The position numbers and the translations under genes are program-made. Under the pieces are notes generated by a model. The model worked only from the letters and a program-made list of their open reading frames with translations. It was not told the DNA's origin and did no database searches. From Squalus acanthias (lineage: Eukaryota), in contig CM059432.1 of NCBI GenBank assembly GCA_030390025.1, positions 90,274,001-90,338,000 on the forward strand: a stretch of DNA of 64,000 nt, in the 5' to 3' direction. Below, in pieces: positions 2,351 to 60,700 of this stretch; position 1 is the stretch's first letter; each line of letters begins with the position of its first letter.

Positions 2351-2590
2351 TGCGTAGTCATGATTTCAGTGCTGGAACTGATGTTCATTGGCTTAACGCT
2401 CAACAGGTGGACCAATATCGGGGCCAATCTAATTCACAGTCATAATTACCACAGGTTTTTTTCCACTACTTAAAGGGGAGGTGCATTAATACTGCAGCAC
2501 CTCATTGTCAGGATGGTGGGGTTTTCAGCTGCTCCAACAGCAAACTGAACAAGGTTAAGGACAAGCAAGAGATATTTAGAAATCATCATC

Positions 2591-6849: not shown

Positions 6850-7690
6850 CTGGGAACTTTGGCATAGGTCCTTGGTGGGTGCATCTCAGCACTACCCCCA
6901 GGATATGCCCCCCCATGGATTTTCTGGGCCGACCGCAATGACTAGGACAGCTCCTGCCATCTAAAGGTAACAACAGCATTAAGCTTCCATGCCTCAGGAT
7001 TCTTCCAAGCCATCTGCCAGATAGCCAGTGTGCAGTTCATACCTGTATAAAACAAGGGGCTTGTTTACCAGGAGAAACACCTTTGCCACTTTCCCCAAGG
7101 AAACAAGACACCAACTGGAGAGGACACTGAACTACTTCCAGCTGGCAGGCTTCCCAACAGACCAGTGCATTATAGATAGGACCGACTATCCCCCGTGGTC
7201 TCGTCACGCCCTATATATGTAACTTCCTCCAGTGCTACAATGCTCCCCCAAACTCTCAATTCCTCAGACTCTGGGCTCCTGTGCAACCCCATCCCTTGTC
7301 CCACTATTAGTGGTTCTGGAATTCCCTCCCTAAATCACTCTGTCTCTCTAACTCCCTCTCTTCTTTTAAGACCTTTCTTCGAACCCACCAATTTGACCAA
7401 GTTTTTAGTCATTCCTCCTAATAGCTACTTTTTCAGCTCAGCATCTGTTTTTTCCTTACACTTCTGTGAAGTACCGTTAAAAGTGTTATATAAATGCATG
7501 TTGTCGTCGTTGTTGCCGCCGCCAGGGCTCCACATAGCAATCCCAATGCAGGCAGCAACAGTAAGAAACAATACTCCATAAATCTGCAGGTGGTTTCTGA
7601 CTACAGTAATGTGATCCTGTATTTTAATGCCAAATATCCAGGGAATACCAATGGAACTCATTGCCACAGAGGGCAGTGTACGCCAGCTCA
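6850..7690 (+). pseudogene. Old Harbinger transposase remnant split by an L2-type 3' end (~7200-7515)
   Basis: RAPHSNP...KKQYSINLQVVSDYSNVILYFNAKYPG in ORF 7494-7694. The L2-type tail ends TATAAATGCATGTTGTCGTCGTTGTTG. Confidence 0.6.
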
Positions 7691-9529: not shown

Positions 9530-12500
9530 TATGTTCCAGGAGGCAGTCACACCCACCAGAATAATTACTTCCAATTTGGCAGGTATTGAGATCCAAGAGG
9601 TAGTGGTGGAGGAGCCTCAGCCTTTGGCCTTGTCCAACAGGTACGAGATTCTTGCTCCCTGTGTGGACGAGGCCAGGGACTGCAGGGAGGATGAGCAAAC
9701 TGACCACAGCACCATGGTACAGGGAGCCATTCAAGTGGGGGGAGCAAAAAGAAATGTTGTAGTGATTAAGGACAGTATAGTGAGGGGGATAGATACTGTT
9801 CTCTGCAGCCAAGAGCGTGAGTCCCGAAGGCTGTGTTGCCTGCCCGGTGCCAGGGTTAAGGACATCTCCTCTGGGCTGGAGAGAAACTTGGAGTGGGAGG
9901 GGGAAGATCCAGTTGTCAGGGTCCACGTAGGTACCAATGACATAGGTAGGACAAAGAAAGAGGTTCTGCTGAGTGAGTATGAGCAGCTAGGGGCTAAATT
10001 AAAAAGCAGAACCACAAAGGTAATAATCTCTGGATTACTACCTGAGCCATGAGCGAATTTGCATAGGGTAAATAAGATCAGAGAAATGAACGAGTGGCTC
10101 AAAGACTGGTGTGGGAGAAATGGGTTTCGATTTGTGGGGCACTGACACCAGTACTGGGATAAGAGGGACCTGTTCCATTTGAACGGGCTTCACTTGAACC
10201 ATGCTGGGGCTAGAGTCCTGGCAAATCGAATAACTAGGGCTGCAGAGAGGGCTTTAAACTAAATAGTGGGGGGGAGGATCCAGGTGAGCAGGAAAATAAA
10301 AAGTCAATGAGAAATGAGAAAGCAATAGAGCAGGCTAGAGATGGGGGAAATAATAACCAGAGTGTGACAGGAAGGGACAGAATGTTTAAAAATAAGAGTG
10401 TAACAAAGAAATAGGCCAAAACAAGGAAAAATGGTAAAAAGACAAAGTTTAAAGCTCTATATCTGAATGCACGCAGCATTCGTAACAAGATAAATGAGTT
10501 GACGGCACAAATAGATACAAATGGGTATGATCTGATCGCCATTACAGAGACGTGGTTGCTAGGCGACCAGGGCTAGGAACTGAATATTCCAGGGTATATG
10601 ATAATTCAGAAGGATAGAAAGAAAGTGAGGTGGGGTGGCTTTGTTGGCAAAAGATGGGATCAGTGCAGTGTTGAGAAGTGATATTGGCTCAGAAGATCAA
10701 GATGTAGAATCGGTTTGGGTGGAGATAAAAAATAATAAGGGGAAAAAGTCTCTGGTGGACAGAGTCTACAGGCCCCCGAACAGTAGCAATGCTGTTGGAC
10801 AGAGTATAAATCAACAAATAATGGAGGCCTGTAAAAAAGGTACGGTAATAATCATGGGTGATTTTAATCTCTGTATTAATTGGACAAATCAAATTGGCCA
10901 TGGTAGCCTGGAGGAGGAGTTCATAGAGTGCAGCTGGGACGTTTTCCTAGAACAGTATGTAATGGAACCAACCAGGGAGCAGGCTATCTTGGATGTGGTA
11001 CTATGTAATGAGACAGAATTAATAAATGATCTCATAGTAAAGGATCCTCTAGGAAGGAGTGATCATAGCATGGTTGAATTTCAAATTAAGTTGGAGGGTG
11101 AGAAAGTTGTATCCCAAACCAGTGTCCTGATCTTAAACAAAGGCAATTATAATGGCATGAGGGCAGAACTGGCTAAAGTGGACTGGAAAAACAAATTAAA
11201 GGGTAAGAAAGTTGAAATGCAGTGGCGGACTTTTAGGGAGATATTTCATAACTACCAACAAAAATATATTCCAGTGAGAAAGAAAGATTTTAAGAGAAGG
11301 GAGCACCATCCGTGGCTAACTAAGGAAGTAAAGGATGGTATCAAATTGAAAATGAAGGCATACAATGTTGCCAAGATTGGTGGTAGACCAGAGGATTGGG
11401 AAATTTTTTAAAACCAGCAAAGGATGACTAAAAAAAAATAAAGAGAGAGAAGATGAATTATGAGAGTAAGCTGGCAAGAAACATTAAAACAGATAGCAAG
11501 AGCTTCTGCAGGTATATAAAAAGGAAGAGAGTAGCTAAAGTAAACTGTTGGTCCCTTAGAGGATGAGACTGGGTAATTAATAATGGGGAAATGGCTGGGA
11601 CTGTGAACAAATATTCTGCATCTATCTTCACTGTAGAAGACACTAACAACATCCCAATAATGGATAATCAAGGGGCCACAGGGAGTGGGGAACTAAAGAC
11701 AATCACTATCACTAAGGAAATAGTACTCGGTAAAATAATGGGACTAAAAGACGACAAGTCCCCTGGACCAGATGGCTTGCATCCCAGGGTCTTAAAAGCA
11801 GTGGCTGCAGAGATAGTGGATGCATTGGTTGCAATATACCAAAATTCCCCGGACTCTGGAGAGGTCCCAGCAGATTGGAAAACCGTTAATGTAAAACCCC
11901 TATTTAAGAAAGGAGGGAGACAGAAAGCAGGAAACTATAGACCAGTTAGTTTAACATCTGTCGTTGGGAAAATGCTGGAATCCTTCATTAAGGAAGCAGT
12001 AGCAGGGCATTTAGAAAAATATACTGCAGTCAAACAGAGTCAGCATGGTTTTATGAAAGGGAAATCATGTTGAACAAATTTGCTGGAGTTCTTTGAGGAT
12101 GTAACAAGCAGGGTGGACAAGGGTGAGCCAGTGGATGTGGTGTATTTGGATTTCCAGAAGGCATTCGATAAGGTGCCGCATAAAAGGTTACTGCATAAGA
12201 TAAGAGCTCACGGAGTTGGGGGTAATATATTAACTTGGATAGAGAATTGGCTAACGAACAGAAAGCAGAGAGTCGGGATAAATGGGTCATTTTCTGGTTT
12301 GCAAACGGTAACTAGTGAGGTGCCACAAGGATCGGTGCTGGGCCCCAACTATTTACAATCTACATTAATGACATGGATGAAGGGGTCGAGTGTAATGTAG
12401 CCAAGTTTGCGGATGATACAAAGATGGGTGGGAAAGCAAGTTGTGCAGAGGACTCAAAGAATTTGCAAAGGGATATAGACAGGCTAGGTGAGTGGGCAAA

Positions 12501-12618
12501 CATTTGGCAGATGGACTATAATGTGGGAAAGTGCGAGGTTATCCACTTTGGCAGGAAAAATAAAAAAGCAAACTATTATTTAAATGGAGAGATTTTTTTA
12601 AATGCTACAGTTCAGAGG

Positions 12619-13703
12619 TGTAGGTGGTTTGCCTTGGTGGTTCAAATCACTTCTCCTACTTAGTTCTAGACGACAGGAATTACGGTGAACAGGATTGGAA
12701 CACATTGGACTCAACTGTACGGTGTTTAATAAGGTTAACACACACACCCGCCTCCAATACGTAAAATGCCTGGTGGCGTAAAACAAACAGTACAACAATA
12801 CAACTTGGCCCGTCGAACAGGCCCCTGTCTCGTATTAAGACGCCTAAAATCACACTGTGTTGCTATACAGAGTATAACATGGACTTGTCCCACAAACCCC
12901 AGAACATACACTATATAATACACACACAACCTCCCCACTAAGCCCCTCTGGATTGGTTGGAACACACAACACCCCCTCACACAGTACCAGTGGTCTTAAG
13001 GATGCGTGCGCTTGGACAATGCTCACCCCGATTGTCCGTTTTCTTGCTCGCTGCTTCCCTGTGTAGGGCGTGTCTCCTGGTTCCGTATCGCCGATGCAGT
13101 ATCCAAGTCCCAGTTTCGAGGTTCGTTCCTACAGTCGAAGAGCAAGGCAAGGCTCTTGTCGCTCATGGTGGTTTCTTCTCTCCGTCTCGGACGGAGTGCT
13201 CGGTTCTTGGTTCAGAGATGAGGGCACGTGAAGGCGAGAGCAAGCGACAGAGAGCGAGAATGGCCAAAGCTGCCTTCTCTTATACCCTAAAAGTTCATTA
13301 AGGTCTGTGTATTGCAGTGATGTTTTTTTAATCACCCTTCTTTGTCTGGTTTCCTGCCTTTCAGGGCTATCCCATCTAGGTGCTAGTGTTAATGGCAGAT
13401 GATGGGCTGCACTTCTTACCTGATCCTGGGTTAAGTGGTTTCCCATTAATTTACAATGGCCCTCCATCTTCTGTCCATTACCATATGAGTCACCTACTCG
13501 GGCCCATTGTTTCCCAGAGAACTCCTGACTGCTCACACATTCTCCCGTAATCAGTTTGTAGGCCTGGCTGGAATCTCCTGTCCATCACGAACACCTGGGC
13601 CCCTCCCATCTTCTCCAAACAGGCTGCTGGTCAATCAGCAGTAACAATCATACAACATGTCCGATACAAAAAAAAATCCTTGGGGCCTGCGCTGATGCTT
13701 ACA
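12619..13703 (-). mobile_element. Solo LTR (1085 bp) inserted in CR1 RT
   Basis: TGTAGG...CTTACA termini and 4-bp TSD GAGG (12615-12618, 13704-13707). CR1 RT resumes exactly. Minus-strand TATAAG (~13280) and ATTAAA (~12725). Confidence 0.85.
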
Positions 13704-13972
13704 GAGGGACCTGGGGGTCCTTGTGCATGAAACACAAAAAGTTAGCATGCAGGTACAGCAAGTAATCAAAAAGGCAAATGGAATGTTGGCCTTTATTTCA
13801 AGGGGGTTTGAGTATAAAAGCAGGGAAGTCCTGCTACAACTGTACAAGGTATTGGTGAGACCACACCTTGAGTACTGCGTACAGTTTTGTTCTCATTTAA
13901 GGAAGGATATACTTGCATTGGAGGCAGTTCAGAGACTATTCACTAGGTTAATTCCAGAGATGAGGGGTTTAA

Positions 13973-15529
13973 CATAGAAACATAGAAGATAGGAGCAGGA
14001 GTAGGCCATTCGGCCCCTCGAGCCTGCTCCGCCATTCGATGAGATCATGGCTGATCATCCAAACTCAGTACCCTGTACCTACCTTCTCCCCATATCCCTT
14101 GATACCTTTAGCTTTAAGAAATATATCTAACTCATTCTTCAATATATTTAATGACTTGGCCTCAACTACCTTCTGTGGTAGAGAATTCCACAGGTTCACC
14201 ACTCTCTGGGTGAAGAAATTCTTCCTCATTTCTGTCCTAAATGGCTTACCCCTTATCTTTAGATTATGACCCCTGGTTCTGGACTCTCTGACCATCGGGA
14301 ACATTCTTCCTGCATCTAGTTTGTCCAGACCTGTCAGAATTTTATATGTTTTGATGAGATCCCCTCTCATTCTTCTATACTCCAGCGAGTATAAGCCCAA
14401 TCGACCCAATCTCTCCTCATATGTCATTCCTGCCATCCCAGGTATCAGCCTTGTGAATCTTCACTGAACTCCTTCCATGGCAAGAACATCCTTCCTCAGA
14501 TAAGGCGACCAAAACTGCACACAATACTCAAGGTGTGGTCTCACCAAGGCCCTGTACAACTGCAGAAGGACATCCCTGTTCCTATACTCAAACCCTTTCG
14601 CTATGAAGGCCAACATACCATTTGCCTTCTTCACCGCTTGCTGCACCTGCATGCTTACCTTCAGCGACTGGTGCACAAGGACACCCAGGTCTCGTTGCAC
14701 TTCCCCTTCTCCCAATCTATTGCCATTCAGATAATAGTCTGCCTTTCTGTTTTTGACACCAAAGTGGATAACCTCGCATTTATCCACATTATATTGCATC
14801 TGCCACGCTTCTGCCCACTCACCCAACCTGTCCAAATCATCCTGGAGTTTCTCGGTATCCTCTTCGCAGCACACACGCCCACCCAGCTTTGTGTCATCTG
14901 CAAACTTGGAGATATTACATTTAGTTCCCTTATCTAGATCATTAATGTATATTGTGAATAGCTGGGGTCCAAGGACCGATCCCTGCGGTACCCCACTAGT
15001 CACTGCCTGCCACTCGGAAAAAGACCCATTAATTCCTACTCTCTGCTTTCTGTCCGCCAACCAGTTCTCTATCCAAGTCAATACCTTGCCCCCAATCCCA
15101 TGTGCCTTAACTTTACCCGCTAATCTCTTATGCGGGACCTTATCGAAAGCCTTTTGAAAGTCCAAATACACCACATCTACTGGTTCTCCCTTATCTATTT
15201 TCCCAGTTACATCCTCAAAAAATTCCAGTGGATTAGTCAAGCACGATTTACCTTTTCTAAATCCATGTTGACTTTGTCCGATCCTGTCACTGTTTTTCAA
15301 GTGCTCAGCTATTACATCCTTTATAATGGACTCGGGCTGCCTCCGCTGCTCTGGGCCTACCACGCCTCGGGGCTCACCTTTATACCGCCGCTCGCCGCAC
15401 GCCGCTCCTCGGGCTGCCTCCGCTGCTCTGGGCCTACCACGTCTCGGGGCTCACCTTTATATCGCCACTCCTCGGGCTGCCTCCGCTGCTCTGGGCCTAC
15501 CACGCCTCGGGGCTCACCTTTATACCGCC
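13973..15529 (-). mobile_element. CR1 LINE (RT to 3' end, well preserved) with 5' GC-rich tandem repeats, inserted antisense in another CR1
   Basis: ORF 14461-15363 is an open RT segment (QHGF, LDFQKAFDKV, GVPQGSVLGP, KFADDTKL). TSD-like GGGTTT at 13965-13970 and 15530-15535. Confidence 0.9.
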
Positions 15530-23357: not shown

Positions 23358-26104
23358 TAAATATTTGAGAGACCCTTCACAAAACCAGGAACTAAATACT
23401 TGTGAGTGCAGATTTTGTTCATGATATAGTGGGTTCAGAATGGGCTCCATTCTGCATGTCTACTCCACCTGTAGCATTGATATGGGATCAATTTTCATTT
23501 TTATGATGGGGACTCCGTGATGGTGGTTGAAGTTTTTTTTATTCGTTTTTATGGGATGTGGGCATCGCTGGCAAAGCCAGCAGTTATTGCCCATCCCTAG
23601 TTGCCCTTGAGAAGGTGAGGGTGAGCCACCTTCTTGAACTGCTGCAGTCCGTGTGGTGAAGGTACTCCCACAGTGCTGTTAGGGAGGGAGTTCCAGGATT
23701 TTGACCCAGCGACGATGAAGGATCGGCGATATATTTCTAAGTCAGAATGGTGTGTGACTTGGAGGGGAACTTGGAGGTGGTGACGTTCCCATGCGCCTGT
23801 TGCCCACGTCCTTCTAGGTGGAAGAGGTCGCGGGTTTGGGAGGTGCTGCCGAAGAAGCCTTGGCGAGTTGCTGCAGTCCATCTTGTAGATGGTACACACT
23901 GCAGCCACGGTACGCCATGGTGGAGGGAGTGAATGTTTAAGGTGGTGGATGGGGTGCCAATCAAGCGGGCTGCTTTGTCCTGTATGGTGTCGAGCTTCTT
24001 GAGTGTTGTTGGAGCTGCACTCATCCAGGCAAGTGGAGAGTATTCCATCACACTCCTTACTTGTGCCTTGTAGATGGTGGAAAGGCTTTGGGGAGTCAGG
24101 AGGTGAGACACTCATCGCAGAATACCTAGCCTCTGACCTGCTCTTGTTGCCACAGTATTTATGTGGCTGGTCCAGTTAAGTTTCTGGTCAATGGTGACCC
24201 CCAGGATGTTGATGTTAGGGGATTCGGCGATGGTAATGCCATTGAATGTCAAGAGGAGGTGGTTAGACTCTCGCTTGTTGGAGATAGTTATTGCCTGGCA
24301 CTTCTGTGGCGCGAATGTTAACTGCCACTTATCAGCCCAAGCCTGAACATCGTCCAGGTCTTGTTGCATGCGGGCATGGACTGCTTCATTTTCTGAGGTT
24401 TTGTGAATGGCACTGAACACTGTGCAGTCATCAGCGAACATCCCCGTTTCTGACCTTATGTTGGAGGGAAGGTCATTGATGAAGCAGCTGCAGATGGTTG
24501 GGCCTAGGACACTGCCCTGAGGAACTCCTGCAGCAATGTCCTGGGGCTGTGATGATTGACCTTCAATCACCACAACCATCTTCCTGTGTGCTAGGTATGA
24601 CTCCAGCCAGTGGAGAGTTCCCCCACCACCACCCCCCCGCCCCCCCGATTCCCATTGATTTCAATTTTACTGGGGCTCCTTCATGTCACACTCGGTCAAA
24701 TGCTGCCTTGATGTCAAGGGCAGTCACTCTCTCTTCACCTCTGGAATTCAGATCCTTTGTCCATGTTTGGACCAAGACTGCAATGAGCTCGGGAGCAGAG
24801 TGGTCTTGGCGGAACCCAAATTGGGTATCAGTGAGCAGGTTATGGTGAGTAAGTGCCACCTGATAGCACTGTCGATGACACCTTCCATCACTTTGCTGAT
24901 GATTGAGAGTAGACTGATGGGGCGGTAATTGGCCAGATTGGATTTGTCTTGCTTTTTGTGGACAGGACATACCTGGGCAGTTTTCCACATTGTCGGATAG
25001 ATGCCAGTGTTGTAGCTGTACTGCAACAGCTTGGCTATAGACGCGGCTAGTTCTGGAGCACAAGTCTTCAGCACGAAAGCCAAGATGTTGTCAGGGCCCA
25101 TAGCCTTTGCTGTATCCAGTGCACTCAGCGGTTTCTTGATATCACGTGGAGTGAATCGAACTGGATGAAGACTGGCTTCTGTGATGGTGGGGACCGCAGG
25201 AGGAGGCCGATATGGATCATCCACTCGGCACTTCTGGCTGAAGATGGTTGCAAACGCTTCAGCCTTGTCTTTTGCACTCACGTGCTGGGCTCCACCATCA
25301 TTGAGGATGGGGATATTCATGGAGCCTCCTCCTCCCGTTCATTGTTTAATCGTCCACCACCATTCACGACTGGATATGGCAGGACTGCTGAGCTTTGATC
25401 TGCTCCGTTGATTGTGGGATCGCTTAGCCCTGGCTATAGCATGCTGCTTCCACTGTTTAGCATGCATGTAGTCCTGTGTTGCAGCTTCCCCAGGTTGGCA
25501 CCTCATTTTTAGCTACGCCTGGTGCTTCTCCTGGCATGCTCTTCTACACTCCTTATTGAACTAGGTTTGGTCCCCTGGCTTGATGGTAATGGTAGAGTGA
25601 GGGATATGGCGGGCCATGAGGTTACAGATTGTGGTGGAATACAATTCTGCTGCTGCTGAAGGCCCACAGCACCTCATGGATGCTCAGTTTTGAGCTGCTA
25701 GATCTGTTCTGAATCTATCCCATTTAGCACGATGGTAGTGCCACACAACACGATGGAGGGTGTCCTCAGTGTGAATACGGGACTTCATCTCCACAATGAC
25801 TGTGCGGTGGTCACTGCTACCAATACTGTCATGGACAGATGCATCTGCGACAGGTAGATTGATGAGGATGAGGTCAAGTAGGTTTTTCCCTCGTGTTGGG
25901 TCACTGACCACCTGTCGCAGGCCCAGACTGGCAGCTATGTCCTTCAGGACCCAGCCAGCTTGGTCAGTAGTGGTGCTACCGAGCCACTCTTGGTGATGGA
26001 CATTGAAGTCCCCCACCCAGAGTACATTCTGCGCCCTTGCTACTCTCAGTGCTTCTTCCAAGTGGTGTTCAACATGGAGGAGTACTGATTCATCAGCTGA
26101 GGGT

Positions 26105-26226
26105 GGGCGGTAGGTGGTAATCAGCAGGGGGTTTCCTTGCCCATGCTTGACCTGAAGCCATGAGACTTCATGGCTTCAGGTCAAGCATGGGCAAGGAAAC
26201 CCCCTGCTGATTACCACCTACCGCCC
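26105..26226. repeat. Perfect 59-bp inverted repeat with 4-nt spacer
   Basis: 26105-26163 is the reverse complement of 26168-26226. TGAGACTTCATGG is duplicated at 26161 and 26227. Confidence 0.95.
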
Positions 26227-26819
26227 TGAGACTTCATGGGGTCCGGAGTCAATGTTGAGGACTCCCAGGGCCACTCCTTCCCGACTGTATACCACTGTGC
26301 CGCCACCCCTGGTGGATCTGTCCTGCCGGTGAGACAGGACATTCCCAGGGATGGTGATGGAGGAGTTTGGGACATTGGCTTAAAGGTATGATTCTGTGAG
26401 TATGACTATGTCAGGCTGTTGCTTGACTAGTCTGCAGGACAACTCTCCCAATTTTGTCACAAGTCCCCAGATGTTGGCGAGGAGTACTTTGCAGGGTTGA
26501 CTGGGCTGGGTGTGCCGGTGCCGAGGTCGATGCCGGGTGGTCCGTCCGGTTTTTTTCTTATTATTTTGTTTCGTAGCAGTTTGTTACAACTAAGTGGCTT
26601 GCTAGGCCATTTCAGAGGGCAGTTAAGAGTCAACCAAATTGCAGTGGGTCTGGAGTCACATATAGGCCAGACCAGGTAAGGACGGCAGATTTCCTTCCCT
26701 AAAGGACATTAGTGAACCAGATAGGTTTTTACGACAATCCGATAGTTTCATGGTTACCATTACTGATACTAGCTTTTTATTCCAGATTTATTTAATTAAC
26801 TGAATTTAAATTCCCCAGC

Positions 26820-26900
26820 TGCCATGGTGGGATTTGAACTCATGTCTCTGGATCATTAGTCCAGGCCTCTGGATTACTAGCCCAGTGATATTACCACTAC
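26820..26900 (-). promoter_or_regulatory. tRNA-derived Pol III internal promoter (tRNA-Thr(AGT)-like) at the LINE 5' end
   Basis: Minus strand: GTAGTGGTAA (3' part of A box), CTGGG-CTAGTAA-TCCAG anticodon arm, a second arm CTGGA-CTAATGA-TCCAG, and B box GAGTTCAAATCC (26830-26841). Confidence 0.8.
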
Positions 26901-27049
26901 TGGTAGTTGGGTTTTACATTTTGGAGAAGGCCATTGCCTTGTACATAAGTGACATGAATGCTACTCGCCACTTCTCGTGTGGAATTTCCTTGGAAAAAAA
27001 AGTTGTTTAATAGTTCTCAGAGTTCTGGACCAATCTCCTTGTCTGTACT

Positions 27050-27650
27050 TCAGCTCCTTCCATGACATCTTCTCCTCTTCCTCCTCCTTTTGCTTTGAGC
27101 CTGAAGCCCCACAGGCCTGCTCTCTATCCTACTCTTTCCTCTTTGGATGGCAGAACCATGCAGCATACAGCAGATGGAAATGATTTTGAGTCTTTGGCTG
27201 GTACCTAGTCCAAGCAATACAAACAACTAGTTCAGCATCCTTATGGTGTGCCTGACGATAACAGTTGCTGCTGTGTAGGGTTTCTATTGGGAGTCATCAG
27301 TTCATTCTGTGGCACCATGGACTACAGCAAAATAAAAGCATCATGATGCAGGATATCATGGCTGTGGAATTACATTTGTGTGGTCTGAAACCATCTGTAC
27401 ATTTAAGGAGTTGTACTCCTTCCTGTTCATGTATGCATTTGGGTTGATGTGTAGAGCACTGATGGCCACACTGTTTCCCTCTATAATGTCCCAGACTCTT
27501 TGGAATTCTCTCAGGCTGTAAAAATCCTGTGTCTTCTCTAGTTAGTATCACCTTTCCATTGGGAAAGTGATATAGGATTTTCCCTTGACAAACATGTCAT
27601 CAGTTACTTGCTTTATACAGGTATGAACTGCACACTGGCTTATATAACAG
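27050..27650 (-). pseudogene. Highly decayed Harbinger transposase remnant
   Basis: Remnant AVCCMVL motif, acidic tail, and residual similarity to 6960-7200. Confidence 0.45.
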
Positions 27651-28680: not shown

Positions 28681-29699
28681 ATGAATTTGTAAAACCTGGG
28701 TCATTTTACTTTATTAAAGGCACTGTAGAAATGCAAGTTGTTGTTGTTGTTGTACATCACAAAATTAACTGAATTTTTTGAGGAAATGAAGAGTGTTATG
28801 GATAAAGGGAATACAATTTGATAAGGTGCCACGTAAGATGAGTCTAGAACTTTTACAAACCCTTTCAGGCTATTGGAAGTGTGGCAGAGCACATTTACCA
28901 CCACCCTAAATGAATTTGCGGTAGAGAGAGGTTCAATTGTCTTCTTCCCAGGACTCCATCCTAAATTGTAGGAATGGGCTCATTAGAATAATCAGGTAAT
29001 TTTTGGGGGGAAGAAGAACAGTAAAAGGATATATATCCTAAATGGTAGGATTCTTAATAGGGTGGATAAATGGATCAGCCATGATCTTATTGAATAGTGG
29101 AGCAGGCTCGAGGGGCCGTATGGCCTGCTCCTGTTCCTAATTCTTATGTTCATATGTTCTTATTGAGGAGTGTAGATACATAGATCTTTAAAGGTGAGAA
29201 TTCAGATAGAAAAGGCCATAAAAATGTAAATGGAATTCTGGATTTTATTTATAAAGGCATCAGATTCAAAAGCAAGGAAATATTGTTGAAATCTACAAGA
29301 CAGTGGTTAGGCCACAGCTGGAGTTTTATGTGCAATTCTGGAAACTCCATCAAGGATATTAGAGCCATGGAAAGGGTAGAGCAAAGATTCACTAGAATGA
29401 TACCAGAATGAAAGGTTATAGTTGTAAATAAAGGTTGAAAAAAATAGGCCCTTTCCACCAGAAGGTTAAGGTGGGGAGATGGAATCTAATGATGGTTTTC
29501 AAAATTATTAAAGACTTTGCAAGGGTAAATAATGAAAGATTGTTTACGCTGGTTGGGAAATAGGTAACAAGGAGTCATGGATTTAGGATTATCACGAGAA
29601 AAATGCAGTGGAAGGGAATTAGAAGAATATTTTACACATGGAGGGTTATTACCACAAGTGGCAATTGAGAATGTACAACCGTGCACATCTGACATAATT

Positions 29700-30460
29700 C
29701 GCACCACGGAAGTGCCAGGCAATGACTATCTCCAACAAGCGAGAGTCTAACCATTTCCCCTTCAATGGCATTACTATCGCCGGATCCCCCACTATCAACA
29801 TCCTGGGGGTCACCATTGACCAGAAACTTAACTGGACCAGCCACAGAAACACTGTGGCAACGAGAGCAGGTCAGAGGCTAGGTATTCTGCGGCGAGTGTC
29901 TCACCTCCTAACTCCCCAAAGCCTTTCCACCATCTACAAGGCACAAGTAAGGAGTGTAATGGAATACTCTCCACTTGCCTGGATGAGTGCAGCTCCAACA
30001 ACACTCAAGAAGCTGGACACCATACAGGACAAAGCAGCCCGCTTGACTGGCACCCCATCCACCACCTTAAATATTCACTCCCTCCACCGTGGCTGCAGTG
30101 TGTACAATCTACAAGATGCACTGCAGCAACTTGCCAAAGCTTCTTCGGCAGCACCTCCCAAACCCGCGACCTCTTCCACCTAGAAGGACAAGGGCAGCAG
30201 ATGCATGGGAACACCACCACCTCCACGTTCCCCTCCAAGTCACACACCATCCTGACTTAGAAGTATATCGCCGATCCTTCATCGTCGCTGGGTCAAAATT
30301 CTGGAACTCCCTCCCTAACAGCACTGTGGGAGTACCTTCACCACACGGACTGCAGCGGTTCAAGAAGGCAGCTCACCACCACCTTCTCAAGGGCAACTAG
30401 GGATGGGCAATAAATGCTGGCCTTGCCAGCGATGCCCACATCCCATAAGTGAATAAAAAA
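29700..30460 (+). mobile_element. LINE family 2, 3' fragment
   Basis: ILGVTIDQKLNWTSH, YKAQVRSVMEYSPLAW, HHHLLKGN*, tail GAATAAAAAA. Confidence 0.95.
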
Positions 30461-33039: not shown

Positions 33040-35563
33040 TTTTATGGGATGTCGGCGTCGCTGGCAAGGCCAGCATTTATTGCACATCCCTAATTGCCTT
33101 GAGAAGGTGGTGGTGAGCCGCATTCTTGAACCGCTGCAGTCCGTGTGGTGAAGGTACTCCCACAGGGCTGTTAGGTAGGGAGTTCCAGGAATTTGGCCCA
33201 GCGACGATGAAGGATCGGCGATATACTTCTAAGTCAGGATGGTGTGTGACTTGGAGGGAATTTGGAGGGTGGTGGTGTTCCCATGCACCTGCTGCCCTTA
33301 TCCTTCTAGGTGGAAGAGTTTGTGGGTTTGGGAGGTGCTGCCGAAGAAGCCTTGGCGAGTTGCTGCAGTGTCATCTTGTAGATGGCACACACTGCAGTCA
33401 CGGTACGCTGGTGGTGGAGGGAGAGAATGTTTAAGGTGGTAGATGGGATGTCAGTCAAGTGGGCTGCTTTATCTTGGATGGTGCTGAGCTTCTTGAGTGT
33501 TGTTGGAGCTGCACTCATCCAGGCAAGTGGAGAGTATTCCATCACACTCCTTACTTGTGCCTTGTGGATGGTAGAAAGGCTTTGGGGAGTCAGGAGGTGA
33601 GACACTCATCGCAGAATACCTACCCTCTGACCTGCTCTTGTTTCCACAGTATTTATGTGGCTAGTCCAGTTACGTTTCTGGTCAATGGTGACCCCCAGGA
33701 TGTTGATGGTGGGGGATTCGGCAATGGTAATGCCATTGAATGTCAAGGGGAGGTGGTTAGACTCTTGCTTGTTGGAGATAGTCATTGCCTGACACTTCTG
33801 TGGCGCGAATGTTACCTGCCACTTATCAGCCCAAGCCTGAACGTCGTCCAAGTCTTGTTTCATGCGGGCATGGACTGCTTCATTATCTGAGGAGTTGTGA
33901 ATGGCGCTGAACACTGTGCAGTCATCAGTGAACATCCCCATTTCTGACCTTATGCTGGAGGGAAGGTCATTCATAAAGCAGCTGAAGATGGTTGGGCCTA
34001 GGACACTGCCCTGAGGAACTCCTGCAGCGATGTCCTGGGGCTGTGATGATTGACCTTCAATCACCACAACCATCTTCCTTTGTGCTCGGTATGACTCCAG
34101 CCAGTGGAGAGTTTTCCCCCCGAATCCCATTGACTTCAGTTTTACTAGGGCTCCTTCATGCCACACTCGGTCAAATGCTGCCTTGATGTCAAGGGCAGTC
34201 ACTCTCACATCACCTCTGGAATTCAGCTCCTATGTCCATATTTGGACCAAGGCTGTAATGAGGTCGGGCGCAGAGTGGTCTTGGTGGAAACCAAATTGGG
34301 CATCAGTGAGCAGGTTATTGGTGAGTAAGTGTCGCTTGATAGCACTGTCGATGACACCTTCCATCACTTTGCTGATGATTGAGAGTAGACTGATGGGTCG
34401 GTAATTGGCCAGATTGGATTTGTCCTGCTTTTAGTGGACAGGACATACCTGGGCAGTTTTCCACATTGTCGGATAGATGCCAGTGTTGTAGCTGTACTGG
34501 AACAGCTTAGCTAGAGGCGCGGCTAGTTCTGGAGCACAAGTCTCCAGCACGATAGCCGGGATGGTGTCAGGGCCCATAGCCTTTGTTATATCCAGTGCGC
34601 TGAGCCATTACTTGATATCACGTGGAGTGAATCGAATTGGCTGAAGATGGTCGGACCTCAGGAGGAGGCCGATATGGATCATCCACTCGGCACTTCTGGC
34701 TGAAGATGGCTGCAAACGCTTCAGCCTTGTCTTTTACACTCACGTGCTGGGCTCCACCATCTTTGAGGATGGGGATATTCATGGAGCCTCCTCCTCCCGT
34801 TAGTTATTTAATGGTCCACCACCATTCACGACTGGATGTGGCAGGACTGCAGAGCTTTGATCTGCTCCGTTGATTGTGGGATCGCTTAGCCCTGTCTATA
34901 GCATGCTGCTTCCGCTTTTTAGCACGCATGTAGACCTGTGTTGCCACTTCCCCAGGTTGGCACCTCATTTTTAGCTACGCCTGGTGCTGCTCCTGGCATG
35001 CTCTTCTGCACTCCCTATTGAACCAGGGTTGGTCCCCTGGCTTGATGGTAATGGTAGAGTGAGGGATATGGCGGGCCATGAGGTTACAGATTGTGGTGGA
35101 ATACAATTCTGCTGCTGCTGATGGCCCACAGAGCCTCATGGATGCCCAGTTTTGAGCTGCTAGATCTGTTCTGAATCTATCCCATTTAGCACGGTGGTAG
35201 TGCCACACAACATGATGGAGGGTGTCCTCATTGTGAATATGGGACATCGTCTCCACAATGTCTGTGCGGTGGTCACTGCTACCAATACTGTCATGGACAG
35301 ATGCATCTGCGACAGGTAGATTGGTGAGGATGAGGTCAATTAGGTTTTTCCCTCGTGTTTGGTTCTCTCACCACCTGTCGCAGGCCCAGACTGGCAGCTG
35401 TGTCCTTCAGGACTCGGCCAGCTTGGTCAGTAGTGGTGCTACCGAGCCACTCTTGGTGATGGACATTGAAGTCCCCCACCCAGAGTACATTCTGTGCCCT
35501 TGCTACTCTCAGTGCTTCTTCCAAGTGGTGTTCAACATGGCGGAGTACTGATTCATCAGCTGA
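33040..35563 (-). mobile_element. LINE family 2, 5'-truncated within APE
   Basis: ORFs 33606-34208 (LDIKAAFDRV, GVPQGSVLGP) and 35336-35614 (VGDFNVHH). Colinear with 23535-26100. Confidence 0.95.
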
Positions 35564-36659
35564 GGCCATGGCACCAACAGCAGTGCATATTGATGCCCGG
35601 GATGGAGTCATCATGGCAAGATTTAATTAGGTTGCATCACTGCACCATCTGGCAGCCACATGCTGAACCCACTTACACCGCCATCCACCCCGCAGAACAA
35701 AGCAGTCCTGCAATCAACAAAGCATCCCTTTTGCAGACACCCATTGTTTGGATTTAAGTCTTGTCTTACCATTCATCAGAACTGAGAAGCCCACTTCACA
35801 GGTTGCAGGCAAAAACGTGCAAGAAGGGAAAGCGGTGCAAAGAAATAATTTTTATGTGGCCCAAAATTTATACATAAACTTAACAGTGTAAGGTTGTATA
35901 ACATCCCCATATGCATACCCTTGTGCAACGACTAATCTTTCATCTTCCTTTTCCTACTAATACTATTACGTCGTGAAGCCCCTGTGACTGAGGCAGAAGT
36001 AGAGGCAGGCTGCTTACATCCCTGCTCTGACTGCTGAGATGCTCTTGGCCGACGTCCTCTGGGTTTTGGAGCTCTTGAGGGCCCCGCCAGATACGGCTCC
36101 AGCTGCACCTGTGCAGAGGCAGACTCAGCCATCGAATCACGAGGCAGCATTTGGGGCACTGACTGAGTCGGGGGATGGGGGGCAATGGGTGTCAAGTGGA
36201 AGTGCTTTGAACAGAGTCACAGAGTTCCCTTTCTCCATATTCCCTCTCATGGCCCACCCACACTTCCCTGCTCGCAAGGAGCCGGAGAGTATTTTGCTGC
36301 ACATCAGTGGAGTGCTGAACAGCCAGGGCTAGTTTTTGATCTATCCGAGTTAAGGTGGCATTCAGAGTGTGCAAGCCTTTGGTGAGGGCCAGTATGCACT
36401 CGTTTGACTGCCACGTTTGATGCTCCACGGACGAAGACATCATCGCAAAGTCCTGCGACATCATGCCAGTCATGCCTGAGATGGACTCCTCCATTCTCTC
36501 TGCAAGCGTGAACTGTGCGGCACCCTCAGAGTTAGCGACCTCATCTGAGGAGTCGTCATCCTCTTCCAGCACCACCACCTGTGGGACACTTGATGGGCCT
36601 GTGGGAGACTAAAGACATGATTTAGAATTGTCACGATAAGAATGTTTTAAGTAAACCCT

Positions 36660-39600
36660 TTATAGAATCATAGAATGGTTACAGCACAGAAGGAGGCCAT
36701 TCGGCCCGTTGAGCTCGTGCCGGCTCTCTGCAAGAGCACTTCAGCTAGTCCCACCCCCCGCCCTTTCTCCGTAGCCCTGCAATTTTTTTTCCTTCAGGTA
36801 TTATCCAAAGCCCTTTTGAAAGTCACGATTGAATCTGCCTCTACCACCCTTTCAGGCAATGCGTTCCAGATCCTAACCACTCGCTGCGTGAAATTTCTTT
36901 TCCTCATGTCGCCTTTGGTTCTTCTGCCAATCACCTTAAATCTGTGTCCTCTGGTTCTTGACCCTTCCACCAATGGGAACAGTTTCTCCCTATCTCCTCT
37001 GTCTAGACCCCTCATGATTTTGAACACCTCTATCAAGTCTCCTCTCAACCTTCTCTGCTCTAAGGAGAACAACCCCAGCTTCTCCAGTCTATCCACGCAA
37101 CTAAAGTCCCTCAACACTGGAAACTTTCTTGTACATCTTTTCTGCACCCTCTCTGAGGCCTTCACATCCTTCCTAAAGTGCGGTGCCAAGAATTGGACAC
37201 AATACTCCAATTGAGGCCGAACCAGTGTTTTATAAAGGTCCATCATAACTTCCTTGCTTTCGTACTCTATGCCTCTATTTATGAAGCCCAGGATCCCGTA
37301 TGCTTTTTTAACCACTTTCTCAACCTGCCCTGCCACCTTCAACGATTTGTGCACATGTACCCCCAGGTCGCCTTGTTCATGCACCTCCTTTAGGATTGTA
37401 TCCTTTGCACTTTTCTGCATTAAGTTTCATCTGCCACGTGTCCGCCCATTCCACCAGCCTGTCTAGGTCCTCTTGAAGTCTATTACTATCCTCCTCACTG
37501 TTCACTATACTTCCAAGTTTTGTGTCATCTGCAAATTTTGAAATTGTGCCCTGTACACCCAAGTCCAGGTCATTAATATATATCAAGAAAAGCAGTGGTC
37601 CTAGTACCAAAGACTGGGGAACCCCACTTTGTATATTCCTCCAGTCCGATAAACAACCGTTCACCACTACTCTCCGTTTCCTGTCACTTAGCCAATTTCT
37701 TATACATGTTGCCACTGTCCCTTTTATTCCATGGGCTTCAACTTTGCTGGCAAGACTATTATGTGGCACTTTATCAAACGTCTTTTGGAAGTCCATGTAC
37801 ACCACATCAACCGCATTGCCCTCATCAACCATCTCTGTTACCTCATCAAAAAACTCGATAAAGTTAGTTGAACACAATTTGCCTTTAACAAATCCGTGCT
37901 GGCTTTCCTTAATTAATCTACACTTGTCCAAGTGACTGTAATTTTGTTCTGGATTATCGTTTCGAAAAGCTTCCTCACTACCGAGGTTAAACTGACTGGC
38001 CTATAGTTGCTGGGTTTATCCTTGCACCCTTTTTTGAACAAAGGTGTAACATTTACAATTCTCCAGTCCTCTGACACCACCCCCGTATCCAAGGAGGATT
38101 GGAAGATTATGGCCAGTACCTCTGCAATTTCCACCCTTACTTCCCTCAGCATCCTAGGATGAATCCCATCCAGTCCTGGTGACTTATCTACTTTAAGTAC
38201 AGCCAGCCATTCTAGTACCTTCACTATCAGTTTTTATCCCATCCAGTATCTCAACTACCTCCACTTTCACTATGACTTCGGCAGCATCTTCTTCCTTGGT
38301 AAAGACAGATGCAAAGTACTCATTTAGTACTTCAGCTATGCCCTCTGCCTCTATGCGTATGTCTCCATTTTGGTCCCTAATTGGCCCCACCCCTCCTCTT
38401 ACTACTCGTTTACTATTTATATGCCTATAGAAGACTTTTGGATTCCCTTTTATGTTAGCTGGCAATCTAGTCTCATACTCTCTCTTTGCCCCTCCTTTTT
38501 CATTTTTCACTTCCCCTCTAAACTTTCTATATTCAACCTGGTTCTCACTTGTATTCTCAACCTGATATCTGTCATATGCCCCTTTTTCTGCTTCATCTTA
38601 CTCATCTATCTCTTTCGTCATCCAGGGAGCTCTGGCTTTGGTTGCCCGACCTTTCCCCCTTGTGGGAATGTACCTCGACGGTACCCGAGCCATCTCCTCT
38701 TTAAAGGCAGCCCATTGTTCGATTACAGTTTTGCCTGCCAATCTTTGACTCCAATTTACCTGGGCCAGATCCATTCTCAACCCACTGAAATTTGCCTTCC
38801 TCCAATTAATTATTTTTACTCTAGATTGCTCCCTGTCCTTTTCCATAGCTAATCTAAAACTTATGATACTGTGATCACTGTTCCCTAAATGTTCCCCTAC
38901 TGACACTTGCTCTACTTGACCCACCTCATTCCCCAGAACCAGATCCAGCAATGCCTCCTTCTCATTGGGCCGGAAACGTACTGATGAAGAAAGTTCTCCT
39001 GAACACACTTCAGAAATTCTTCCCCCTCTCTGCCCTTTACACTATTACTATCCCAGTCTATATTAGGATAGTTGAAGTCCCATATTATCACTACTCTATA
39101 GTTCTTGCACCTCTCTGTAATTTGCTCCTCTATATCCTTCCCACTAGTTGGTGGCCTACAGAATACACCTAGTAGTGTAATATCACCGATATTGTTTCTC
39201 AACTCTAACTAAATAGATTCTGTCCTTGACCCCTCTAGGACATTCTTTCTCTCCAGCGCTGTAATATTCTCCTTCATCAATACTGCCACCCCACTTCCTT
39301 TCGTTCCTTCCTATCTTTCCTAAACACCTTGGGCTGGACTTTGTGAATAGAGGCGAGTTGGAGGCGGGACTGCTGCTTGTCGTCTCAATGTCCCGCCTCC
39401 ATCCTTGCCTGACCAACCAGAGGGATTTTTCCCCTTATTGAGCTTGTTAAGCCCACCCTGCGGGCTCAGCAGGCCAATTAGGGAAGAAGTCACTGACAGA
39501 GCACGTCAACGTCAGACGTGCTATCTGTCAAGACTTCTTGAAAGAAGAAATGTCAGCGTTTGACAGCTCTGTGAAGCTGTCAAACACTGACATTCTCTTT

Positions 39601-42145: not shown

Positions 42146-43231
42146 TGTTAGAAACTAGGTGTGCCTAAAAATGTATATGGCTACACGAATAATACTGTGT
42201 TTAAATGATAAGTTTTGTTTTCCTGGAAAGCTTGTATTAGAATTTGAGACAGTCTTTTTAATCAGTTAGATTAGGTGAAACATAAACATTCCACACGGGG
42301 GCCCATAGGATGGCCCTGCTAGGCTAGTTATCTGTTGTTTGTAAGTTAGGGTTTTGACTTTGTTAATGTATCTTTAATTTGGCCAGTGAAGGCCCAACCT
42401 ATGTTTCTTCCATTATTACTAATAACCATATTATAATCTCTACAGATAGAATGTGGAGTTTGTTTAGCAGAACTGCTTTGAAGATAATTAAAAGTTAATT
42501 AGGAAAAGACATAGAATGAAAGGAATTTGAGGAGGCTAAGGTATCCATCTTAGAATGGGCCATTTGCTAGATGAAGGTGAGATAGCGACTGGCTAATGTG
42601 TGACAGCTCTGGCTGGGGCCATGATTAAGAGGGTCAGGCCAGGCCTTGTACTTGCTGGGTTAAGGAGGATTGAATCAAGAGAGATAAGATGGATTCCAAT
42701 GGAGGAACCTTCAAAATGTAAAAACAAGAAAGATAAATTGGATGAAGTAATGAGACCCTCTTTTGGGGAGGGCTTTCATCCAAGAACCAAGACAAAGAAC
42801 TTGAGCTGTCATTGGTTGATGAAGTTTTAGAGGAACCTCTATAGGTTAAATGGTCTTGTCAATAACTTGGCCTCAGGCCCACCCTTAAAATGAGAATAAA
42901 AGTGACACCCCAAGGGCTTGCCCACAGACGGTGGAGGGGAGAGCCGAACAGAAGTTGCAAAGAGAAGTTGGGCTGGTCGAATGCTCTTTTGAGAGTGATC
43001 CCACACTCAGCATTGGAGGTTCTAGAGTGAAAGAGAGAGAGAGAGAGAGAACTGTTCACGCCTGCCAGCCATCTGTCCGATCGGGTCCGGTACCAGCTGC
43101 TTGTCACATTCGTATGTTTTTGCTGTATTACTAGTGTGTTATATTCTGTCCTAAACTCCAATTAAACACAATATACCCACTATATTGGTTTGCACTCGAT
43201 CCTGTTTACCAGAGATACATGAATCTCTACA
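42146..43231 (+). repeat. 5' LTR
   Basis: Direct repeat of 47956-49056 with about 30-35 differences counted by eye. ATTAAA near the 3' end and a (GA)n tract. Confidence 0.97.
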
Positions 43232-43234
43232 AAT

Positions 43235-49056: not shown

Positions 49057-49282
49057 AGGGTGACTATGAGGGAGAGGCGTGACATTGCATTAAGATGAGG
49101 GTGAGTGTCATTGGTGGATGGTCAGATGGGGATGCGAGCAAGTGCATAGACAGAGAGGGATGGGTGCACCTGCAAGGTACGTTGGTGTAAGCAGTGATGT
49201 GCAGGAGTAGGCTTGGGAAGGCTGAGTGAGGGGTTGGGGTGACACACACATCAGGATGTAGTTGAATGTGGCATTGTGTTCA

Positions 49283-51083: not shown

Positions 51084-51125
51084 TGTGCTTTTTTTAAAAC
51101 TCGCTTACTGACCAGGTAGCACAGT

Positions 51126-51886: not shown

Positions 51887-52007
51887 ATTAAATTTAGTGG
51901 TAGTAATGGAATAAGAGCTTCTGCATATAGCCACTCAGTTGCCAATCAAGCTGTAGATGCAATTTTGAAGCTATAGCCATTCAAACCCTGTCCAGTTTGG
52001 AAATTAT

Positions 52008-55620: not shown

Positions 55621-56161
55621 TTCTGATGTCCAATCCCAATTGTGATTAAAATGAAACAGAAAAAGGAGGCTTATGGTAAATGTCAGGTTCATAATTCAGT
55701 AGAGAACTAAGCTGAATACAGAATGTGCAGAGGAGAACTGAAAAAGGAAATAAGAGGGGCTAAGAGAATGTATGAGAAAAAATTAGCAGGTAACATAAAA
55801 GGGAACACGAAAGTCTTTTATAAACTTATAAAGAGTAAAAGGATAGTCAAAGGAAGGGTGGGACTGATTAGAGATCAAAAAGGAAACCTTCTTGTGGAGG
55901 CAGAGGGCATAGCTGAGGTACTAATTGAATAACAACCGAAAACGCTGGAAAAACTCAGCAGGCCAGGCAGCATCCGTGGAGAGAGAAACAGAGTTAACGT
56001 TTCAGGTCGAAGATCCTTTGTCAGAACTGGCAAAAAGCAGGAAATGAAATAGATTTAAAGCAAGTATAATGCTGGGAAAAGGGGGAGGGGATGAAAGAAC
56101 AAAAGGGAAGGTCAGTGGTTGTATAGAAGGCAGGAGAGATTAAGAGACATTGGGAGACATT

Positions 56162-57442: not shown

Positions 57443-58764
57443 CTGTTTCTCTCTCCACGGATGCTGCCTGGCCTGCTGAGTTTTTCCAGCGTTTTCTGTT
57501 GTTATTTCGTATTTCCAGCATCCACAGCATTTTGCGATCGTACTAATTGAATACTTTGCAACTGTCTTCACAAAACAGGAGGTACTTGCCAATGTCAAAG
57601 GGGCTAGAGAAATTGGTTAGGATAAAATAAAGAGGAGGTACTAAAAAGGTTAAGAGTGCTCAAAGTAGTAAAGTCACCCGGTCCGGATGAACGCATCCTG
57701 GGTTGCTGAGGGAAGTAAGGGTGGAAATTGCAGAGGCTCTGGCCACAATCTTCCAATCCTCCTTAGATATGGGAGTGGTGCCAGAGGACCAGAGGATTGC
57801 AAATGTTACACCTCTGTTCAAAAAAGGGGAGAGGGATAAACCAGGTAACTATAGGCGACTCAGCCTAACGTCGGTGGTGGGGAAATTTCCAGAGACCATA
57901 AGCCAGAATGACATTAATTGTCACTTGGAAGAACATGGGTTAATAAATGACAGCTGGCATGGATTTGTTAAAGGCAAATCGTGTCTAACAAATTGAGTTT
58001 ATTAATGAAATAACAGCAAGGGTTGATGAGGGTAGTGCAGTTGATGTGTATATGCACTTCAAAAGGCATTTCATAAAGTGCCACATAATAGACTTGTTAG
58101 CAAAATCGAAGCCCATGGGATTAAAGAGGCAGTGGCAGCATGGAGACAAAATTGGATAAGAGACAGAAAGGAGAGGGTAGTGGTGAACAGTTGTTTATCA
58201 GACTGGAGAAAAGTATACAGTGGTGTTCCCCAGGGGTCGGAATTAGGACCACTGCTCTTTTTGATATATATTAATGACCTGAACTTGGGTATAGTAGGAA
58301 AATTTCAAAGTTTTCAGCTGATACAGAACTTGGAAATGTGTGTAAATCGTGAGGAGGATAGTAACAGAGTTCAGGAGGACATAGACAGACAGATGAAATG
58401 GGCAGACACATGGCCGATGAAATTTAACGCAGAGAAGTGTGAAGTGATGCATTTTGGGAGGAAGAATGAGGAGCGGCAATATAAACTAAATGGTACAATT
58501 TTAAAGGGGGTGCAGAAACAGATACCTGGGGGCTTTGCATAAACAAATCTTTGATGGTGGCAGGACAAGTTGAGTAGGCTGTTAAAAAAGCTGTGGTATT
58601 TTTCGCTTTATACATAGAAATAGACGCCAATATTAATTTGAAGATGGCTTCCGTGCTGTGGAGGGGTGGAGGGGGGGTGGAAATATGTGGGGGAAAACCA
58701 GATGTCAACTGAGCCGGTCGGGATCTTCGACCTCAACTCAACTGAACCAGCATGATATAGACAG

Positions 58765-60700
58765 GGCGAAGTGATCCCACAATCAACAGATCAGATCAAA
58801 GCTTTGCAGTCCTGCCACATCCAGTCGTGAATGGTGGTGGACCATTAAACAACTAACGGGAGGAGGAGACTCCATGAATATCCCCAACTTCAATGATGGT
58901 GGAGTCCAGCACGCGAGTGCAAAAGGCAAGGTTGAAGCGTTTGCAACCATCTTCAGCCAGAAGTGCCGAGTGGATGATCCATATCGGCCTCCTCCTGAGG
59001 TCCCCACCATCACAGCAGCCAGTCTTCAGCCAATTCAATTCACTCCACGTGATATCAAGAAATGGCTCAGCGCACTGGATACAACAAAGGCCCTGACAAC
59101 ATCCCGGCTATCGTGCTGAAGACTTATGCTCCAGAATTAGCCGCACCTCTAGCCAAGCTGTTCCAGTATAGCTACAACACTGGCATCTATCCGACAATGT
59201 GGAAAACTGCCCAGGTATGTCCTGTCCACAAAAAGCAGGACAAATCCAATCCGGCCAATTACCGCCCCATCAGTCTACTTTCAATCATCAGCAAAGTGAT
59301 GGAAGGTGTCATCAACAGTGCTATCAAGCGGCACTTACTCTCTAATAACCTGCTCACTGATGCCCAGTTTGGATTCCACCAAGACCACTCGGCTCCCGAC
59401 CTCATTACAGCCTTGGTCCAAACATGGACAAAGGAGCTGAATTCCAGAGGTGAGGTGAGAGTGACTGCCCTTGACATCAAGGCAGCATTTGACCGAGTGT
59501 GGCATCAAGAAGCCCTAGTAAAACTGAAGTCAATGGGAATCGGGGGGGAAAACTCTCCACTGGCTGGAGTCATACCTAGCACAAAGGAAGATGGTTGTGG
59601 TGATTGGAGGTCAATCATCACAGCCCCAGGACATCGCTGCAAGAGTTCCTCAGGGCAGTGTCCTAGGCCCAACCATCTTCAGCTGCTTCATCAATGACCT
59701 TCCCTCCAACATAACAACAACAACAACTTGTATTTATATAGCGCCTTAACGTAGTAAAACGCCCCAAGGTGCAGGTCAGAAATGGGGATGTTCGCTGATG
59801 ACTGCACAGTGTTCAGCGCCATTCACAACTCCTCAGATAATGAAGCACTCCATGACCGCATGCAACAAGACTTGGACGACGTTTAGGCTTGGGCTGATAA
59901 GTGGCAGGTAACATTCGCGCCACAGAAGTGCTAGGCACTGACTATCTCCAACAAGCGAGAGCCTAACCACCGCCCCTTGACATTCAATGGCATTACCATC
60001 GCCAGATCCCCCACCATCAACATCCTGGGGGTCACCATTGACCAGAAACTTAACTGGACCAGCCACATAAATACTGTGGCAACAAGAGCAGGTTAGAGGC
60101 TAAGAATTCTGCATTGAGCGTCTAACCTCATGACTCCCCAAAGCCTTTCCACCATCTACAAGGCACAAGTAAGGAGTGTGATGGCATACTCTCCACTTGC
60201 CTGGATGAGTGCAGCTCCAACAACACTCAAGAAACTCGACACCATCCAGGACAAAGCAGCCCGCTTTATTGGCACCCCATCCACCACCTTAAATATTCAC
60301 TCCCTCCACCACCAGCGTACCGTGGCTGCAGTGTGTACCATCTACAAGATGTACTGCAGCAACTCGCCAAGGCTTCTTCGGCAACACCTCCAAAACCTGC
60401 GACCTCTTCCACCTAGAAGGACAAGGGCAGCAGACACATGGGAACACCACCACCTCCAAGTTCCCCTCCAAGTCACACACCATCCTGACATAGAAGTATA
60501 TCGCCAATCCTTCATCGTCGCTGGGCCAAAATCCAGGAACTCCCTCCCTAATAGCACAGTGGGAGTACCTTCACCACATGGACTGCAGCGGTTCAAGAAG
60601 GCGGCTCACCACCACCTTCTCAAGGGCAATTAGGGATGGGCAATAAATGCTGGCCTTGCCAGCGAGACCAACATCTCATAAACAAATAAAAAATAAATAA
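58765..60700 (+). mobile_element. LINE family 2, 5'-truncated, with an inverted L2-type tail fragment at ~59714-59772
   Basis: ORFs 59062-59697 and 60130-60633 (HHHLLKGN*). Tail AAATAAAAAATAAATAA. Confidence 0.95.

Follow-up and report, generated by a model that had tools for sequence, protein, structure and literature searches.

The window analysed here is a 64,000-nt stretch of the Squalus acanthias genome (assembly GCA_030390025.1, contig CM059432.1, positions 90,274,001 to 90,338,000, forward strand). On its minus strand, at 23535..26900, lies a decayed, nearly full-length long interspersed element (LINE) of the elasmobranch Zenon type (CR1 group), which is 96.4% identical to its family consensus over 3273 aligned bases and was matched to a published consensus by eye. 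[quoted passage not shown] The frame is present but broken, by seven in-frame stops, three small deletions, and insertions of 66 and 19 nt; with these stops and indels, the copy is dead. The parts of the element, all on the minus strand, are:

26818..26900, minus: tRNA-derived head (boxes from the sequence, arms read by eye)
26900-26894, minus: 3' part of the A box
26885-26869 and 26864-26848, minus: two tandem hairpins resembling anticodon arms (by eye)
26841-26830, minus: B box
26587..26817, minus: body common to the short interspersed elements (SINEs) of this genome and to all five published elasmobranch Zenon consensus sequences
26494..26586, minus: linker with a hexamer repeat; the out-of-frame AUG of the family is mutated here at ~26555
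23597..26493, minus: single APE-RT frame, broken by seven stops and several indels
26174..26239, minus: 66-nt insertion in the APE region, specific to this copy, that repeats in inverted orientation the sequence lying just downstream
23535..23596, minus: 3' untranslated region (UTR) and A tail; the family AATAAA is altered here and a single T precedes the tail

The SINE body is probably the Deu domain, a tentative label. The 66-nt insertion is not present in the other family loci (L002-L030), and the 19-nt insertion, at 24625-24643, is G-rich and, within the RT region, falls on a run of G.

The element had been described as bounded by a target-site duplication (TSD), which the flanks do not bear out: those of the window copy have in common a 9-mer with one mismatch (by eye), and in 12 copies complete from head to tail the longest exact word common to both flanks is 4-9 nt. 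A degenerate duplication of ~40 nt around one full-length copy (5' flank in L055, 3' flank in L073; by eye) is the sole clear TSD-like case among the 12. TSDs are not obligatory for non-LTR elements (PMC4494074).

A fixed tRNA head

The consensus of this high-copy family is 3289 nt long and has one open frame of 957 codons (973 in a variant with a longer linker), with the first in-frame Met at ~codon 270; with this length and frame, it is not a SINE. The frame is a single APE and RT open reading frame (ORF) without ORF1, as characterizes Zenon. The initial annotation was right that ORF1 is missing, but this is general to all Zenon elements and is no evidence for Pol III.

The 3.7-Gb genome was searched with the whole element (30288 first-look candidates, 40 scored), and the 29 other loci are 93-97% identical to the consensus. 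Three of them start at nt 1, 15 at nt 15-270, and 11 at nt 341-692, and these 29 copies, selected by their whole-element score, gave no alternative common 5' end (the pairs L004/L005 and L007/L008 appear to be duplicates). A query of head plus linker gave 6360 candidates, of which 40 were scored, and 29/29 other loci cut out run on into the ORF; these picks are biased towards the head by the query, and the test of the head rests on the whole-element set, where 18/29 start within nt 1-270. Both sets bear out the prediction that the head stands at the same junction in many copies. The 3' stretches fetched for 15 head-bearing loci contain a full tail ~3.3 kb from the head in 12, an early end in one, and no tail in two.

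Complete 5' ends have a full A box at +8 and a B box, with a doubled anticodon-like arm between the two; the boxes were judged against the established A- and B-box consensus, and full-length copies start exactly at tRNA +1. The partial A box of the initial annotation is thus correct for the window copy, which lacks the first 11-12 nt of the consensus, but not for the family. ARAGORN finds no tRNA gene in the head and Rfam gives no tRNA match; folding of the head gives a z of -0.56, and its arms, the anticodon arm doubled, were read by eye only.

Among published consensus rows, compared over their first 400 nt, 7/7 elasmobranch Zenon rows (five species, one a ray) open with the head and body, and a canonical B box is found in the rows of three of the five species. 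Two hagfish rows and one coelacanth row have no such head and contain runs of four T within the same 400 nt. We conclude that the tRNA head is a fixed, family-wide part of the element and the sole 5' end of the family.

Protein matches of the ORF come from sharks and rays, and from invertebrate-type elements at 42-48%, one of them from a butterfly. Several gene models from sharks and rays that carry the names of ordinary genes (P0001, P0002, P0012, P0013, P0016, P0017, P0028) contain pieces of the ORF at 55-86% identity, reflecting either mis-annotation or exonisation. In contigs of four sequencing runs guessed to be RNA, 30/30 bins of the element are covered, with joins from body to tail; these data are silent on start, strand, level, and polymerase.

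Depletion of T runs

The initial annotation reported that the sense strand has no run of four or more T (T4+) and proposed a purge of Pol III terminators from the ORF. The sense strand of the window copy indeed has 0 T4+ runs, against 17 A4+, 11 C4+, and 12 G4+ runs, and the whole family consensus is free of T4 as well as of ORF1 and of any other 5' end. The consensus ORF compares as 0 T4 to a mean of 3.2 under free synonymous choice (P=0.03). Runs of three T (T3) number five, where 11.4 are expected under codon permutation (P=0.004), 15.0 under a third-position null (P=0.0003), and 16.7 under free synonymous choice (0 of 3000). A3 runs, too, fall short under two nulls (P ~0.01); C and G runs do not.

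Two sets of controls lack this depletion. Family copies contain 10 T4 in 151 kb, against 107 in 34 further RT-coding segments that were taken from the window and flanks and total 27 kb, and under codon permutation neither the 30 CR1 segments, pooled (T3 P=0.06, T4 P=0.17), nor the four pooled L2 segments (T3 P=0.26, T4 P=0.97) are clearly depleted. The other set consists of metagenome relatives, the best 80 of 224 loci with related ORFs, of which 36 have ORFs of 700+ codons. T4 is present in 80/80, with a minimum of 6 among the 36 long ORFs versus 0 in the shark family. Observed over expected T3 is 0.30 in the shark family and at least 0.81 in the 36; the TTT share of Phe is 0.17 versus at least 0.38, and Phe content 1.88% versus at least 3.15%. 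The shark ORF keeps 13/13 conserved Phe and has just five others. Neither the tRNA head nor the common SINE body was found in the 80 relatives, many of whose contigs may end before the 5' end.

Because the family is an outlier on T4, T3, TTT, and Phe while the controls are unpurged, the T-run purge of the sense strand is real and lineage-specific. The proposed purge of terminators from the ORF is upheld by the T3 counts and the controls, but not by T4 alone, which is not significant in the codon-permutation test.

3' end

We compared 41 tails (39 of LINEs or fragments, two of SINEs), leaving out two duplicate loci and correcting four rows by eye. The run immediately before the A tail has no T in two copies, one in 19, two in nine, three in three, four in four, five in three, and six in one, so that T2+ precedes the tail in 20/41 and T4+ in 8/41. 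At five internal sites where T is followed by A4/5, T2+ occurs in 4/240 reads and T4+ in 0/240. An AATAAA lies ~40 nt upstream of the terminal T run, and a poly(A) tail is present. This terminal variable T run is a new observation for the shark LINE.

The layout resembles that of T+ SINEs (B2, Dip, Ves), which have AATAAA, a T run of variable length, and an A tail, and whose Pol III RNAs are polyadenylated (PMC8466645). Unlike the shark LINE, T+ SINEs are short, non-coding, and mammalian, and their polyadenylation has been shown experimentally (PMC8466645); that of the LINE is putative.

Leader and start of translation

Nine AUGs lie upstream of the ORF in the consensus. The initial annotation saw no AUG close upstream of the APE motif, which is true of the window copy but not of the family: in 33/44 copies an AUG, mostly out of frame, lies ~70-100 nt upstream of APE in the linker, and it also occurs in the first Zenon rows of all five elasmobranch species. 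Reaching the ORF from this AUG needs a -1 shift in 34/43 measurable copies. Linker indels are multiples of three, keeping one frame relation in those 34/43; as the linker is a hexamer repeat, this is no proof of translation. Across the five published rows, synonymous changes in the consensus favour neither frame (by eye), and folding gave no fold like that of an internal ribosome entry site (IRES) in the leader and no strong leader structure.

At the end of the SINE body (consensus 300-330; window 26612-26586) there is an in-frame AUG with a stop one codon later, and a second in-frame stop there is a Tyr codon in the rows of four other species (by eye). Reinitiation or read-through at this point is a possible route to a start. 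An upstream ORF of 99 codons in the first consensus was considered as a conserved feature and rejected, as a common variant introduces a stop.

The RNAs of R2 and L1Tc, which like the shark LINE are non-LTR elements with a single ORF, are uncapped, and their translation is thought to be IRES-like (PMC6765202). Those RNAs are cut from a co-transcript by a ribozyme like that of hepatitis delta virus, and Rfam gave no such match in the shark LINE. Functional mRNA from Pol III is reportedly, by its title, the subject of a 1995 study.

SINEs made from the head and tail

Two SINEs flanking family copies each consist of the head and body of the LINE joined to its tail, at 88-93% identity per part:

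L054:2746-3119: SINE form of ~390 nt, consensus 1-325 joined to 3224-end
L006:4182-4635: SINE form of ~460 nt, consensus 2-344 joined to 3169-end, which takes in 20 nt from the linker of the LINE as well as the ORF end

With each form as query, 40/40 scored candidates match across the join, so that both are multi-copy families; that they are built from the head and tail of the LINE is a new observation. SacSINE1, of the DeuSINE group, is a 463-bp element with a tRNA head, a Deu domain, and a LINE-derived tail (PMC2746220; also PMC5499810, PMC3747384). Its length and layout are matched by the 462-nt SINE of this genome (L006 type), which has the head, body, and tail of the LINE at 88%; the comparison is by stated length and layout, and SacSINE1, unlike the shark LINE, is non-coding. 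The partner named in published work is either L2-2_CM, to which the tails of the related CmiSINEs have 78.6% similarity, or a "CR1-4_DR-like" element, not Zenon, and we found no paper that treats SacSINE1 together with Zenon. The shark LINE is a likely partner LINE for shark SINEs.

SacSINE1 relatives occur in elephant shark and coelacanth (PMC5499810), where no headed Zenon is reported, and the simplest order would therefore have the SINE as the older element and the LINE as the one that captured its 5' half. The 462-nt form contains linker and ORF bases and therefore looks like a later deletion product. As to the Deu domain, hagfish EbuSINE2 has at most a faint likeness, by eye.

Relation to published elements

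Zenon elements, each with poly(A) and none with ORF1, have been described from sharks and rays as well as from coelacanth and hagfish (Stuart et al. 2026, PMC13343379). The published rows include SquAca_Zenon-1 (3314 nt) and the Zenon-1 elements of CarCar, RhiTyp, ScyCan, and HypSab (PMC13343379). Over its first 400 nt, SquAca_Zenon-1 agrees by eye with our consensus to within a few bases, and its length, missing ORF1, and poly(A) tail are the same (PMC13343379). The window family is most likely that of SquAca_Zenon-1, judging from this match, and the family with its missing ORF1 is therefore already known. In the text of PMC13343379 that was available, tRNA, polymerase III, and promoter have 0 mentions, as does tRNA in the supplement, and its account of Zenon does not discuss the head, the T-run purge, or the SINE link. 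The tRNA-headed architecture of elasmobranch Zenon was thus not found described, although the family itself is known.

The literature searched contains no Pol III-driven LINE; Repbase, Dfam, and the original accounts of Vingi (Kojima 2011) and DeuSINEs (Nishihara 2006) lie outside it and may hold a precedent. In Bov-tA and SINE2-1_ACar, a tRNA head is joined to the 5' and 3' parts of a LINE, with the ORF lost in Bov-tA types, and RTE-1_DAn and related elements are LINEs reported to contain a tRNA-like sequence, with no claim as to position or promoter in the available text (PMC5786205, PMC4494074); RTE-1_DAn is a possible precedent for a tRNA-headed LINE. Lepidopteran Zenon resembles the shark LINE in its ~3.3 kb, single ORF, and poly(A), and it too yields short, internally deleted elements (PMC6740152). 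One deletion derivative with the Zenon 5' end, Persaeus, shows neither homology to tRNA nor a Pol III promoter according to the same source.

Proposed mechanism and alternatives

Coding LINEs are generally assigned to RNA polymerase II (Pol II), and short non-coding SINEs to Pol III. Based on the sequence features above, we propose, at a probability of about 0.6, that the shark LINE is transcribed by Pol III as a protein-coding mRNA. An ORF1-less Zenon would have captured the 5' half of a SINE, tRNA head plus body, before sharks and rays split, and the head would serve as promoter. TFIIIC and Pol III would start at +1, read through 3.3 kb without meeting a terminator, and stop either in the flank or at the T run just past the 3' UTR; the transcript would be polyadenylated through the AATAAA in T+ SINE fashion. 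With nine AUGs preceding the ORF, scanning from the 5' end is not expected, and the uncapped RNA would most likely be translated after internal entry, starting either at a non-AUG codon or at the conserved linker AUG with a subsequent -1 frameshift. The APE-RT protein would insert the RNA by target-primed reverse transcription, and internal deletions of the LINE would give rise to head-plus-tail SINE families that it mobilises.

If this is true, a lineage that has retained a tRNA promoter ahead of its 960-codon ORF across sharks and rays would break the LINE/SINE divide, and the transcript would be a natural long Pol III mRNA. One construct could then address the length limits of Pol III, the translation of an uncapped RNA with many upstream AUGs, and the role of conserved SINE bodies. 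The full combination, in which a 3.3-kb Pol III mRNA has a T+ SINE-like 3' end and cap-free translation, selection against terminators has reshaped codons and lowered Phe, the SINE body is perhaps a ribosome-entry element, and SacSINE1-type SINEs are deletion products, has in our view about even odds.

A number of results weigh against Pol III. The absence of T4 from the consensus ORF does not stand out from synonymous-codon permutation, which the initial annotation had named as a test that could refute it (0 versus a mean of 1.9, P=0.11), or from the third-position null (mean 1.8, P=0.14); the permutation preserves the already low TTT and Phe and therefore has little power. The copies stem from few sources, so that the 151 kb are not independent, two single CR1 segments are also low on T3 (P 0.043, 0.065), the shark ORF is the most T-poor of its set (0.19 versus 0.23 or more), and the metagenome relatives, at 42% identity or less, are remote and come from other hosts. 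At the 3' end, a single T precedes the tail in 19/41 copies, and in T+ SINEs the terminal T runs grow after insertion (PMC8466645); the runs therefore do not record the polymerase, and the pattern fits Pol III without proving it. The linker AUG is missing in 11/44 copies, no canonical slippery heptamer was seen, and the folding energy of head and body is unremarkable (z -0.6 to 1.2). Pol III processivity has also been argued to limit such elements to ~1.3 kb or less (PMC10886601).

The strongest competitor, which we nevertheless consider unlikely, is that the captured SINE half acts as a Pol II promoter, or is the 5' UTR of Pol II RNAs begun internally or by host read-through, with T runs scarce through avoidance of U-rich processing signals or a C/A-rich bias of the lineage. 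Pol II transcription from Pol III promoters is reportedly known, going by the title of a study cited in PMC8223928. The non-significant T4 test is in keeping with such an origin, AATAAA and poly(A) fit Pol II equally well, and published work assigns LINE transcription to Pol II (PMC10886601, PMC5786205). It leaves unexplained, however, why full-length copies begin precisely at tRNA +1 with the A box at +8, why the A and B boxes have persisted in five species, and why neither the Pol II-type CR1 and L2 elements of the same genome nor the 80 relatives are purged; moreover, the nine upstream AUGs would impede cap-dependent scanning too.

Less probable still is a division of labour in which Pol III makes the 3.3-kb template RNA and the protein is supplied in trans from capped Pol II transcripts of copies in or near host units. 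This would account for the head, the purge, and the terminal T run without cap-independent translation, and activity of the protein in trans is shown by the SINE derivatives, but a fully open consensus ORF requires that the replicated RNA itself be selected for coding (cis preference), and the problem of the start codon persists. That a SINE and a 5'-truncated LINE came to lie side by side by chance in the window copy alone, conceivable since SINEs with the same head are at high copy number, was rejected and retains almost no probability: the head is fixed across family loci and published elasmobranch rows, with an identical junction in dozens of loci and five species, and SINEs carry their own tail directly after the body, where the LINE has none.

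Other features of the window

Besides the element at 23535..26900, the window contains three 5'-truncated copies of the same family:

33041..35565, minus: consensus 747-3284
58744..60687, plus: consensus 1399-3289
29697..30454, plus: consensus 2515-3289

The flank upstream of the LINE, 27000-27650 on the minus strand, is related to 7011-7176; it reads like a decayed fragment of a PIF/Harbinger nuclease, a tentative label based on a motif. Canonical CR1-like RT-coding fragments, labelled by eye from their protein text, lie at 1253-2348, 10463-12831, 13711-15381, 36800-39184, 57583-58602, and 61682-62106, and served as T-run controls. Two repeat pairs are also present, one direct (42146-43232 and 47956-49057, 96%) and one inverted (51125-51887 and 56161-56927, 89%).

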